This document shows, piece by piece, positions 54,205-56,349 of a stretch of DNA of 64,000 nt (the stretch's first letter is position 1; every line of letters begins with the position of its first letter). Below the pieces are notes generated by a model. It had not been told where the DNA came from, did not search any database, and saw only the letters and a program-made list of their open reading frames with translations. This DNA is from a virus. The DNA lies in IMG/VR virus record IMGVR_UViG_3300025849_000016, positions 42,705 through 106,704 of that record; one strand, 5' to 3'. The position numbers and the translations under genes were made by a program.

Positions 54205-54585
54205 TTAGCTAAATGCGTCTACTGCTGCGCCTGAATCAGCTGCACCAGGATGTACGCCTGCTGCCCAACGAACTTTACCAACATCTGTTGTTCCGCCTTC
54301 ATACTGAATTTTTCTACCGTATAAACGTGTAACTTGTACTGTTGTTGAATCATCTAAAACAGCATCAATTCGCATTTCACCAGCAACTAATGCAGCATTA
54401 GCTTTGTTAACTAATGTTAATACTTCTGTTGTTGAGCCATTTGTAACTGTAAATTTATTTGATGATCTTTGGTTTACAATCCATGCATCAGTTGTTGCTT
54501 CTGAGCCACCTGTAAAAAAGTGACGAGTCACTTTAATTGATCCTGCATCGTTGCCAAAATATTTCTTATTTAGTGGTCTTCCCAT
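54205..54585 (-). CDS. Hypothetical protein (126 aa, MGRPLNKKYFG...)
   Basis: Start moved from GTG 54669 to ATG 54585, which has an AAAGGAG SD; the upstream 84 nt form a structured leader. Confidence 0.8.
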   Translation of the reverse strand: MGRPLNKKYFGNDAGSIKVTRHFFTGGSEATTDAWIVNQRSSNKFTVTNGSTTEVLTLVNKANAALVAGEMRIDAVLDDSTTVQVTRLYGRKIQYEGGTTDVGKVRWAAGVHPGAADSGAAVDAFS

Positions 54586-54670
54586 TTGTTTCTCCTTTAA
54601 AAACGTTCTAGGTTTACGCAGTAGGTCAATTCTGCATAAGTCCGTATCATACGGCACGATTATCGACACT
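54586..54670 (-). promoter_or_regulatory. Pseudoknotted three-way-junction 5' leader
   Basis: Hairpins CCGUA-UGA-UACGG and UUAUGCAG/CUGCGUAA; loop AUUGAC can pair with 5' GUCGAU; begins right after TAAATAC (54673-54678). Confidence 0.5.
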
Positions 54671-54672
54671 AG

Positions 54673-54678
54673 TATTTA
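54673..54678 (-). promoter_or_regulatory. T4-like late promoter core (GATAAATACTAG)
   Basis: Immediately downstream of terminator 54688-54720. Confidence 0.6.
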
Positions 54679-54687
54679 TCAAATAAG

Positions 54688-54720
54688 AAAAAAGCCTTAA
54701 CAAATAAATGCTAAGGCTTT
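54688..54720 (-). terminator. Rho-independent terminator closing the ncRNA unit
   Basis: AAAGCCUUAGCA-loop-UGUUAAGGCUUUUUU. Confidence 0.75.
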
Positions 54721-54931
54721 AAATAAAAGTGATAGGTTGGACTCTGAGAATACCAACAACCTCCTAGTAGCTCTCGCATAATTCGGAGGAGCCTAGTATC
54801 GGATAGTTACTTCCAAAAACATATCTTTGTATCTCTACACTCATATGTTGCTACTACAGCTACTAGCCAAGTTGTGTCACTACGCAACACCGTTCCTTGC
54901 ACTATCTAATCTAAACCGTCGTTTAGCTTAT
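54688..54931 (-). ncRNA. ~240-nt structured ncRNA, manA-motif-like
   Basis: Has its own sigma70 promoter and terminator. Closing helix GAUAG/CUAUC, several internal stems and pseudoknot complementarities. The 3' element UGUUGGUAU...UCCAACC resembles my recollection of the manA RNA 3' end. Confidence 0.6.
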
Positions 54932-54937
54932 GTATTA

Positions 54938-54966
54938 AATATAACAAACTATTAAGCAGAAGTCAA
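54938..54966 (-). promoter_or_regulatory. Host sigma70-type promoter (TTGACT-17 bp-TATATT, extended -10 TGn)
   Basis: -35 at 54961-54966, -10 at 54938-54943, A/T-tract UP-like element upstream. Confidence 0.75.
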
Positions 54967-55050
54967 CCTCTTTTTTAATAAAAAGTTAATTTTTTTTATG
55001 TGGTGCTGTTTAATGATTCGTTGAAAGCACCAAAGCGTGTAATTATCCAT
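54952..55050 (-). CDS. 32-aa basic peptide MDNYTLWCFQRIIKQHHIKKINFLLKKRLTSA downstream of the glutamine riboswitch
   Basis: Strong GAGGAG SD 6 nt before the ATG; below the ORF-track size cutoff. Confidence 0.55.
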   Translation of the reverse strand: MDNYTLWCFQRIIKQHHIKKINFLLKKRLTSA

Positions 55051-55075
55051 AACACTCTCCTCGTTAAAGGGTTAA

Positions 55076-55120
55076 GTGCGTTCCTTCGCTTATGCTACTC
55101 CCGGCCTGTTGGCTGAACGT
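55076..55120 (-). ncRNA. glnA-type glutamine riboswitch (glutamine-I)
   Basis: ACGUUC-A-GCC(AACA)GGC-C-GGGAGUA-GC(AUAA)GC-GAA-G-GAACGCAC: P1 CGUUC/GAACG, P2, E-loop AGUA/GAA, P3 and the 3' CGC of the glnA motif. Confidence 0.8.
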
Positions 55121-55125
55121 AATAT

Positions 55126-55131
55126 TATTTA
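55126..55131 (-). promoter_or_regulatory. Late-promoter core (CTAAATAATATT) ahead of the riboswitch
   Basis: TAAATA 5 nt downstream of the capsid terminator and 5 nt upstream of the aptamer. Confidence 0.5.
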
Positions 55132-55136
55132 GTCAT

Positions 55137-55163
55137 AAAAATAGGCGCCGTAGCGCCTATTTT
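55137..55163 (-). terminator. Rho-independent terminator of the major capsid gene
   Basis: AAAAUAGGCGC-UACG-GCGCCUAUUUUU perfect stem with a UNCG loop. Confidence 0.85.
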
Positions 55164-55182: not shown

Positions 55183-56349
55183 TTAACTAAAAGATACGTT
55201 ACCGTTAGTAATAGCAACTTTACCTAAGTAATCAGCTGCGTTACCAAGCGATGACGCTGTGTTTGATAGTTCAACATAACCATAACGTGTCATAAATGAT
55301 ACGACTGGCTCGAATGAATTTGGATCAAGTACAACACCTGAACTCATTAGCGGGATGTATGGGCAGTAGAACGCCGGAGCGTCTGACTCTGAACCACCTT
55401 TGTAGCCAATAAGAACGTCTGTGCTGTCTGCTGCATATGAATCTACATACACTTTCATTGCGTTGTTTAATGTACCAACGAATTTTGTGTTTGTAGGTGC
55501 TTCAAATGCACCTTCAGTTGTACGAGCAAATGCACTTGTAGTTGCAGACTGTAGGATTGTTAATGCAAATGGGCTAACCACTGCATAGTTACCTGCGCCT
55601 CTGCGTGTACGCTGAGCAATCTCGTTTGCAACTTTGTTGACTTGTACTGCTAATGCAGCATGTTCGTCACCAACAAATGTTGCTGTACCTGAAACAGCAG
55701 CTTGATCATAAGTCTGTGTTGCGTTTCCGGCTAATGCACGTAGTGAAGCAAGAACTTCTTGGTCGATCTCAGCAGTAATTTCTTGTGCTAGAGCAGCCAT
55801 AATTTCAGCTTCGATATCAATACCGTGCTGTGCTTGTGCATCTTGTGCAGATTCAAAAGTCCAACGAGCTGATAGCTTGCGAGTTTTTGCTTCTACAGTT
55901 TGCTTTAAGATCTGGATGCTTAGTCTGTTACCAGCTTCACCTTCCATTGATCCTGTTGAGCTAGGTGCACCATTTGAAGATGGATTGCCTGAATAGCTCT
56001 CAGCAATTTTGAATGGGCTTAGAGCCTCTTCACCTGCTGTTGCGCCGTTATTGCCATCGGCATAACGTACACGTAGTGTGTGGATCTGACCCACTGGTCC
56101 TGTCATTGGCTGTACGCCAACTAGTTCGTTTGCGATGACTGTTGGCATCACACGACGAATGACTGGTAGAATAACACGGTTAAGTGTTGCGACATTACCG
56201 GCAGAAGTAGCACCAGCTGTTGCACTTTCTGAAAGATACCTACGAGTATTTTCCAGTGTGCTTTCCATTACAGCTTTCTTGTTTCCAGTTAAACCTTCAA
56301 CAAGAGCGGTTTTAGTTTCCTGCCAGCGACTTTCTAGTAGTTCTGACAT
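55183..56349 (-). CDS. gp23: Major capsid protein, T4 gp23 family (388 aa)
   Basis: GVQPMTGPVGQI, TVEAKTRKLSARWTFESAQDAQAQHGID, FYCPYIPL and TRYG motifs; synteny after gp21 and gp22. Confidence 0.95.
   Translation of the reverse strand: MSELLESRWQETKTALVEGLTGNKKAVMESTLENTRRYLSESATAGATSAGNVATLNRVILPVIRRVMPTVIANELVGVQPMTGPVGQIHTLRVRYADGNNGATAGEEALSPFKIAESYSGNPSSNGAPSSTGSMEGEAGNRLSIQILKQTVEAKTRKLSARWTFESAQDAQAQHGIDIEAEIMAALAQEITAEIDQEVLASLRALAGNATQTYDQAAVSGTATFVGDEHAALAVQVNKVANEIAQRTRRGAGNYAVVSPFALTILQSATTSAFARTTEGAFEAPTNTKFVGTLNNAMKVYVDSYAADSTDVLIGYKGGSESDAPAFYCPYIPLMSSGVVLDPNSFEPVVSFMTRYGYVELSNTASSLGNAADYLGKVAITNGNVSFS

Follow-up and report, generated by a model that had tools for sequence, protein, structure and literature searches.

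Glutamine riboswitches of the glnA type are known from cyanobacteria, cyanophages, the OM43 phage Melnitz and pelagiphages (PMC2864571, PMC6212724, PMC9004378), and for gifB a model of Klahn et al. has glutamine open the RNA and activate translation (PMC6212724). The manA motif is known from T4-like cyanophages, marine metagenomes and Photobacterium, and is listed as cis-regulatory (PMC2864571). In vitro, manA RNAs assemble into decamers and a 60-subunit cage via the kissing loops L5-L7' and L8-L9' (preprint 10.64898/2026.07.01.735769). In cyanophage S-CREM1 the motifs wcaG, manA and abiF lie within about 0.8 kb, with a glutamine riboswitch about 154 kb from manA (PMC9964418, Table 4). The locus described here, at 54586-55163 of a window of 64,000 nucleotides (the whole stretch of DNA that was analysed), contains a glutamine riboswitch, a manA-type RNA and a freshwater-2 RNA, and belongs to an uncultured freshwater (lake) jumbo phage with a viral contig of 106.7 kb, estimated to be about 31% complete. 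Freshwater-2, the third of these motifs, reportedly comes from Weinberg et al. 2017.

All genes around this locus are encoded on the minus strand. Read along it, the first half of the locus is composed of the major head protein gene, terminator T1, a late-type promoter, the glutamine aptamer, an open reading frame (ORF) of 32 codons and a sigma70 promoter, and the second half of the manA-type RNA, terminator T2, a late promoter, the freshwater-2 leader and a gene for a protein of 126 amino acids (aa). A preliminary description had given this order of elements with its two promoter classes, both of which were recovered on the minus strand, and had taken the stretch for an undescribed system in which riboswitch, peptide and noncoding RNA form one integrated nitrogen-responsive module. 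The three RNAs are not undescribed, being assigned to the Rfam families RF01739, RF01745 and RF02980; judged from sequence, they are no new RNAs but diverged members of families already known, found here in a new phage lineage. The locus is very probably composed of three separate RNA units of catalogued families, which reside together in a variable cargo slot, and does not make up one nitrogen-sensing machine. No second copy of the glutamine riboswitch, manA or freshwater-2 was found on the 106.7-kb contig.

The riboswitch resembles the glnA type in having the same aptamer and the anti-Shine-Dalgarno (anti-SD) logic proposed for gifB, where the arrangement is the same. It is 87% identical in DNA to the Melnitz copy over 58 nt, and in Melnitz a 32-aa ORF likewise stands behind it; the Melnitz paper assigned the riboswitch to control of transfer-messenger RNA (tmRNA) and did not annotate the small ORF. 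It is unlike the known cases in its genome, a Rak2-like freshwater jumbo phage, in its ORF, which is not DUF4278/IF17-like, in its T4-type late promoter and in its place directly behind the capsid gene. The manA-type RNA has retained complementary loop pairs as in the consensus (UAGU/ACUA here, UGGU/ACCA in the consensus), but unlike the known copies it has its own sigma70 promoter and terminator and is situated among the late structural genes of a jumbo phage. The freshwater-2 RNA agrees with RF02980, a family listed as cis-regulatory, in its three hairpins and conserved elements. As in S-CREM1, several Rfam RNA motifs including manA are packed in a short stretch of a T4-like phage, whereas the partner RNAs are others, and the S-CREM1 paper reports no promoter or terminator analysis.

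Relatives were collected by the head protein (80 viral contigs), by the 126-aa protein (5) and by the aptamer pattern (119), and are labelled here with L-numbers, L001 being Methylophilales phage Melnitz (MZ577097). Presence and absence of the RNAs were tabulated for the best 80 capsid loci of Rak2-like contigs.

Structure and signals of the three RNAs

The aptamer was the sole Rfam match above cut-off within the whole window. It matched the full RF01739 model (positions 1-53 of 53) with no non-canonical pair flagged, and the whole architecture was present, namely P1 (CGUUC/GAACG), two inner hairpins and the conserved GGAAGUA-type and GAAGGAACGC strands, with one deviation, GGGAGUA instead of GGAAGUA. 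Glutamine aptamers at the same site in relatives scored up to 63 bits. In the expression platform, GCACUU directly 3' of P1 pairs with GAGUGU and CCUU pairs with GAGG. An anti-SD helix of 5-7 bp ending 3 nt before the ATG was present in 41 of the 56 distinct phage platforms, and it occurred in the compensatory variants CACUU/GAGUG, CACCU/GGGUG, CAUCU/AGAUG, CGCCU/AGGUG and CAAUC/GAUUG. Neither in the platform nor between the ORF and the sigma70 promoter was a terminator-like hairpin found (z -0.7). Since the anti-SD helix covaries and the platform is free of terminators, the switch would set translation of the ORF and not the amount of read-through RNA, so glutamine should not set the level of read-through RNA into manA. 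This speaks against the nitrogen-responsive noncoding RNA proposed before, since the platform is an anti-SD helix of translational type. The claim that no terminator separates the peptide ORF from the noncoding RNA held, and because of this a late read-through RNA of about 435 nt, carrying aptamer and manA, may fairly be inferred. Together with the predicted manA transcript of about 245 nt (from about 54931 to 54686) it fits the sizes of about 430 and 240 nt that had been put forward.

Copies of the ORF with 28-32 aa were observed in L031, L010, L012, L014, L166 and L175, sharing the pattern MD[NRIL][YF][TA][LFYI]WC[FY]...KQH...(KK)[IV]NF, and looser relatives in L129, Melnitz (L001:4056-4151), L162, L165, L109 and L144. 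The 32-aa peptide had no Pfam match with E up to 1, and the DUF4278/IF17-like family PF14105 was likewise not matched; a link of the peptide to glutamine synthetase control could be drawn by analogy only. Other phage riboswitches were located upstream of ORF families of roughly 50 aa and 64 aa. A TAAATA or TATAAA core ended 3-13 nt upstream (mode 6) of 41 of 59 phage aptamers, against a background of 1.8% of random 25-nt windows, and the CTAAATA of the window was retained in 9 jumbo-phage cassette copies (window included) and absent from Melnitz. From these aptamer-proximal cores, read by the T4-type late promoter consensus, we infer that phage riboswitch RNAs start at the aptamer as late transcripts. 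Phage glutamine riboswitches would thus mostly be late-promoter cassettes serving tiny ORFs.

The 32-aa ORF of Melnitz (L001:4056-4151, plus strand), MTLYQQWCYLKAQKEY..., lies downstream of the riboswitch with a Shine-Dalgarno (SD) sequence and the conserved anti-SD helix, and is unannotated, the record showing a minus-strand hypothetical coding sequence at the site. In L155 (3165-3341, minus strand), and also in L139, L099, L153 and L148, a riboswitch stands upstream of a YRG-repeat ORF, and the L155 ORF passes Pfam DUF4278 (IF17-like) with 30.5 vs 25.3 bits; the riboswitch-IF17 pairing of cyanobacteria is thus copied in phages. Tandem glutamine aptamers were seen at L109:3413-3524, L199:2284-2395 and L117:3190-3304 and in L152.

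For the manA-type RNA, model positions 1-192 were matched full length, including the 5' hairpin, the long-range closing helix and the multi-helix junctions with their conserved loops, and copies at the same site in relatives scored above the cut-off (79.9 in L012, 61.9 in L175). A first-pass profile search of the phage's own contig with RF01745 gave no match, the divergent copy being missed, and when a canonical copy, that of L012, was compared with isolate phages by blastn, no match was obtained either. The -35 element of its promoter, TTGACT at 54966, lies within the last codons of the peptide ORF, just as previously described. Among 19 aligned relatives, TTGA of the -35 was invariant (its C at least 90%), TG and most -10 positions were invariant, and the spacer was variable. 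TTGAC-N16-18-TAnnnT was found in 25/27 distinct complete manA loci, and a terminator directly after the RNA in 24/27. The next gene downstream has a separate late promoter. With its own promoter and terminator both conserved, manA would therefore be an autonomous transcription unit and no 5' leader; the copy at this locus is best described as a free-standing RNA gene, not as the cis-regulatory 5' untranslated region that RF01745 is typed as in Rfam.

In the manA consensus structure of the 19 aligned genes, 92.5% of the cells were paired, vs 30-40% with slid partners, and both-side changes occurred in 33 of 47 pairs, which none of 500 shuffles reached. Two loop-loop contacts covary. The pairing at 129-182, with UAGU/ACUA in the window and UGGU/ACCA in others, has a varying pair that is AU in 11 and GC in 6. 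The L8/L9 loop pair was found in six matched tetramer types (GAGA/UCUC, AUGA/UCAU, GUGG/UCAC, AGGA/UCCU, CAGA/UCUG and CUGA/UCAG). In a register-anchored test 12 of 16 distinct sequences matched, the shuffled mean being 5.3, and 1 of 5000 shuffles was equally good. Both contacts would fit conserved pairing. An unanchored search for complementary runs between manA loops gave no separation (4.97 for own vs 4.40 for cross pairs), and the register-anchored test was used instead.

Two loci departed from the usual manA arrangement. In L049 (4499-4570) a transfer RNA (tRNA; Rfam tRNA, 61.5 bits; tRNA-Gly by aragorn) stands directly after manA at the usual terminator site. In L072 (4520-4830) the manA -35 is weaker (TTGCTT) and no terminator follows the RNA, so that in this relative manA and the freshwater-2 gene may share a transcript.

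Freshwater-2 leaders at the same site scored above the cut-off in fourteen relative loci (52.0-76.7 bits). In 52 aligned leaders, pairing was 81% for hairpin 1 (in a sequence-only alignment), 100% for hairpin 2 and 97.8% for hairpin 3; 4/4 pairs of hairpin 3 covaried, and both-side changes were present in 10/15 pairs of all hairpins. The leader was followed by ATG in 52/52, and TAAATA sat at a fixed distance in 52/52. The conserved elements are ACUUAUGC...GCGUA and YUAGAAC, then AAGGAGAAA and the ATG, the ribosome-binding site AAGGAGAAA being outside every conserved leader helix. Most likely freshwater-2 would be bound by a protein or ligand, or would stabilise the RNA at its 5' end. The structured leader of the preliminary description could be confirmed in this way. 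Its pseudoknot (GUCGAU with the loop AUUGAC) was rejected as a family feature, 65.8% of the cells pairing in the 52 leaders and the middle pairs being confined to 7/52 leaders that carry an AAYUGAC loop insertion. In the relatives examined, freshwater-2 always adjoined an ORF starting with MGRP; the products ranged from 116 to 512 aa and had in common only MGRP[LIV]xK and a few core positions. Nucleotide conservation of freshwater-2 was seen to extend into the first MGRP codons.

Assortment among relatives and rival explanations

In about 90 related contigs, freshwater-2 was present in nearly all loci whose sequence reached far enough downstream, manA was patchy (about 30 loci) and the riboswitch was rare (9 loci and the window). 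With G for the riboswitch, M for manA and F for freshwater-2, four states were seen, F, MF, GMF and GF, and freshwater-2 stood alone in many relatives. The nearest relatives, L002, L084, L086 and L082 (head protein 97-98% identical), carry manA and freshwater-2 without the riboswitch cassette; in them the manA promoter comes directly after T1, and 147 nt are cleanly missing at the cassette site. Tandem aptamers and freshwater-2 without manA were found in L109 and L199, the head proteins of which are 74% identical, and Rfam confirmed this. Among 58 phage loci with a true aptamer, manA was nearby in 7 and not in the other 51. Synteny across relatives was the check that had been suggested for the integrated module, with independent occurrence of its elements counting against it, and it is independent occurrence of the three RNAs that was found.

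The ancestry of the locus is mosaic. Positions 55140-54941 of the window are 90-100% identical to L031, with flanks at 41-88%; compared with L002, it is the flanks that are 92-100% identical. The cassette is 96% identical between the window and L031 phages, whose head genes are only 78% identical. Either recombination has therefore exchanged this L031-like block within L002-like flanks, the manA promoter included, or the sisters have lost it. Placed on the capsid-gene tree, the 7 complete rows with a riboswitch call for 6 changes, of which well-supported branches force at least 5. In L117, L155 and L198 the riboswitch also comes right after a T4-type head gene, a distant one with 31% identity, and the position behind the capsid gene thus appears to recur for the riboswitch in distant T4-like phages.

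Several points weigh against three separate units. In the close lineage (capsid protein at least 81% identical), manA stands directly downstream in 7/7 complete riboswitch loci, and the exchanged block includes the manA promoter, which indicates some linkage, physical or functional. The window copies of manA (34.1 vs 55.2 bits) and freshwater-2 (45.8 vs 49.9) lie below the Rfam gathering cut-off. The manA consensus structure was derived from the same alignment that was used for counting covariation; intramolecular and intermolecular loop-loop contacts are indistinguishable from sequence, and the correspondence of the preprint's loop numbers to the manA of the window is our own assignment. The aptamer reads GGGAGUAG where the consensus is GGAAGUAG, and its ligand binding is a prediction, as are the promoters, terminators and isoforms at the locus.

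The adjacency in 7/7 loci and the exchanged block, which spans both the cassette and the manA promoter, would favour the view that riboswitch, peptide and noncoding RNA form one nitrogen-responsive module, with an early sigma70 RNA and a late aptamer-bearing isoform of selected function. The stretch from the ORF to manA is moreover free of terminators, the ORF end overlaps the manA promoter, and the 7 adjacent loci fall at 5 or more separate places in the capsid tree. However, such a module is unlikely. Besides the nearest relatives with manA and no cassette, L109 and L199 with the cassette and no manA, and the 51 riboswitch loci away from manA, a cassette of the same type is found in Melnitz behind the tmRNA gene, the manA promoter and terminator are conserved with or without the cassette, and a translational switch should leave the quantity of read-through RNA unaffected. 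Block transfer with manA as homology arm would explain the adjacency of riboswitch and manA at least as well as function does.

It is more improbable still that the cassette is a decaying passenger, in which the variant aptamer GGGAGUAG no longer binds glutamine and the ORF is untranslated or functionless. The deviation is at a strongly conserved aptamer position, the 32-codon ORF is outside known families and the cassette is dispensable in sister phages, but L031 and L059 have retained the same aptamer variant together with an intact P1, SD helix and ORF, and the score of the aptamer exceeds the gathering cut-off. The near identity of the cassette across phages with much more diverged capsid genes, and the conservation of ORF length, start and N-terminal motif in divergent copies, also oppose decay. 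That the matches are chance or compositional artefacts of an A+T-rich spacer, as the two sub-threshold Rfam scores and the 3 promoter-like matches in the region (3.7 expected in shuffles) might suggest, is refuted by the comparative data, namely covarying homologues that dozens of contigs carry at this position and promoter hexamers nearly invariant beside a variable spacer, together with window-wide E-values of 7.6e-6 and 8.7e-4.

The gap from the head-gene terminator to the freshwater-2 promoter measured about 85 to 2,000 nt in relatives and was occupied by varied ORFs or a tRNA; an Rfam scan of the long gaps between capsid gene and leader revealed no further RNA families, only ORFs. The gap behind the head gene thus seems to behave as a cargo hotspot. 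Accessory ORFs were observed in it at L009:3697-4274, L042:4830-5838, L023:4176-5367 and L016:3559-4138, and the gap ORFs include a 128-aa ORF starting with MAYTDAVLEHYNNPKNVG, a 322-aa Cys-rich ORF and signal-peptide/lipoprotein-like ORFs. The 128-aa ORF presumably resembles IscU/NifU.

Coordinates and neighbouring genes

Table 1. Predicted features of the RNA locus in order of transcription, with positions in the window.
Feature	Position	Strand	Details
Major head protein gene, T4 gp23-like, Rak2/CBB/PA5oct type	55183..56349	-	phrog_138, E 5.8e-102
Intrinsic terminator T1, AAUAGGCGC-UACG-GCGCCUAUU + U run	55133..55163 (hairpin 55163-55138)	-	dG -16.9, z -6.2
Late-type promoter core CTAAATA (TAAATA 55131-55126)	55126..55132	-	ends 6 nt before aptamer
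Glutamine riboswitch aptamer, glnA type, RF01739	55075..55121	-	42.3 bits vs gathering 35, E 7.6e-6 for whole window
Expression platform hairpin burying the Shine-Dalgarno sequence	55052..55079	-	dG -8.5
32-codon ORF MDNYTLWCFQRIIKQHHIKKINFLLKKRLTSA, SD GAGGAG	54952..55050	-	3' end overlaps UP/-35 region of manA promoter
sigma70-type promoter TTGACT-17-(TG)TATATT	54938..54966	-	-35 inside last codons of 32-codon ORF
manA-type structured RNA, RF01745, divergent	54726..54917	-	34.1 bits, E 7e-7 on 1 kb
Intrinsic terminator T2 of manA gene	54686..54720 (terminator match 54720-54691)	-	dG -15.9, z -5.5
Late promoter GATAAATAC	54672..54680	-	upstream of freshwater-2 leader; TAAATA invariant in 52 leaders
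freshwater-2 RNA, RF02980, divergent; three hairpins, open SD AAAGGAG, ATG	54583..54656	-	45.8 bits, E 8.7e-4 for whole window
126-aa late gene behind freshwater-2	54205..54585	-	MGRP N-terminus, all-beta body, AF2 pLDDT 79.8

The head protein has about 70% aa identity to the capsid proteins of Rak2/CBB/GAP32/PA5oct-type jumbo phages, and its gene is the last of the upstream late operon, which T1 (98-100% identical in L002/L084) follows. The head gene has no late promoter of its own and is apparently co-transcribed from about 59130.

On the contig, ATAAATA was present in 22 copies on the gene strand vs 5 on the opposite strand; 18 of the 22 were outside ORFs and 17 within 150 nt upstream of a start. 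The longer form GATAAATAC(A/T) stands 10-95 nt before the start of many genes on the minus strand over the whole contig. By its distribution GATAAATAC would be the late promoter consensus of the phage.

For the 126-aa protein, neither a Pfam nor a PHROG family was found, and by Foldseek its model had no PDB match. One weak tblastn match was obtained, in Sinorhizobium phage Phosso, and the fold of the model matched uncharacterised proteins of Agrobacterium phage Atu_ph07 and Yersinia phage fHe-Yen9-04. A role of the MGRP protein in the virion is a guess from the gene position.

Proposed working of the slot and its meaning

In the proposed explanation, cargo would be taken up between the terminator of the capsid gene and the late gene that follows, and recombination would swap blocks in this slot, so that units come to reside together. 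The first unit would be a portable late promoter with glutamine riboswitch and 32-codon ORF, the RNA of which begins at the aptamer. When glutamine is absent, the bases just 3' of P1 would form the helix that hides the ribosome-binding site; when it is bound, the site would be freed, as in the gifB model, and the small basic peptide would be made late and only at plentiful glutamine. The second unit would be the manA RNA gene, which with its own strong host-type promoter and terminator could give a free-standing RNA, and its loop-loop covariation fits the kissing-loop self-assembly seen in vitro. The third, freshwater-2, would be the fixed 5' end of the MGRP late mRNA with the ribosome-binding site open.

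A further step is rather doubtful and may be offered as a tentative proposal, that manA in these jumbo phages regulates no neighbouring gene but is an abundant RNA self-assembling into rings or cages in cells by its two covarying loop contacts, made early from the strong host-type promoter (and, where the cassette is present, also late at the 3' end of the peptide mRNA), and that the cassette ties a small host-directed peptide to glutamine.

Freshwater-2, an orphan metagenomic motif, gains by this locus a home, the Rak2-like jumbo phages, and a target, the MGRP late mRNA after the capsid gene. An autonomous manA gene with covarying loops is the genomic signature that would be expected if the cages seen in vitro exist in cells. 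The unannotated ORF of Melnitz would be one of the tiny ORFs served by the riboswitch, and since both Melnitz and its OM43 host are culturable, this is directly testable. If the tentative proposal is true, the cassette of late promoter, riboswitch and micro-ORF would be a widespread link in aquatic phages between peptide output and the glutamine of the cell.

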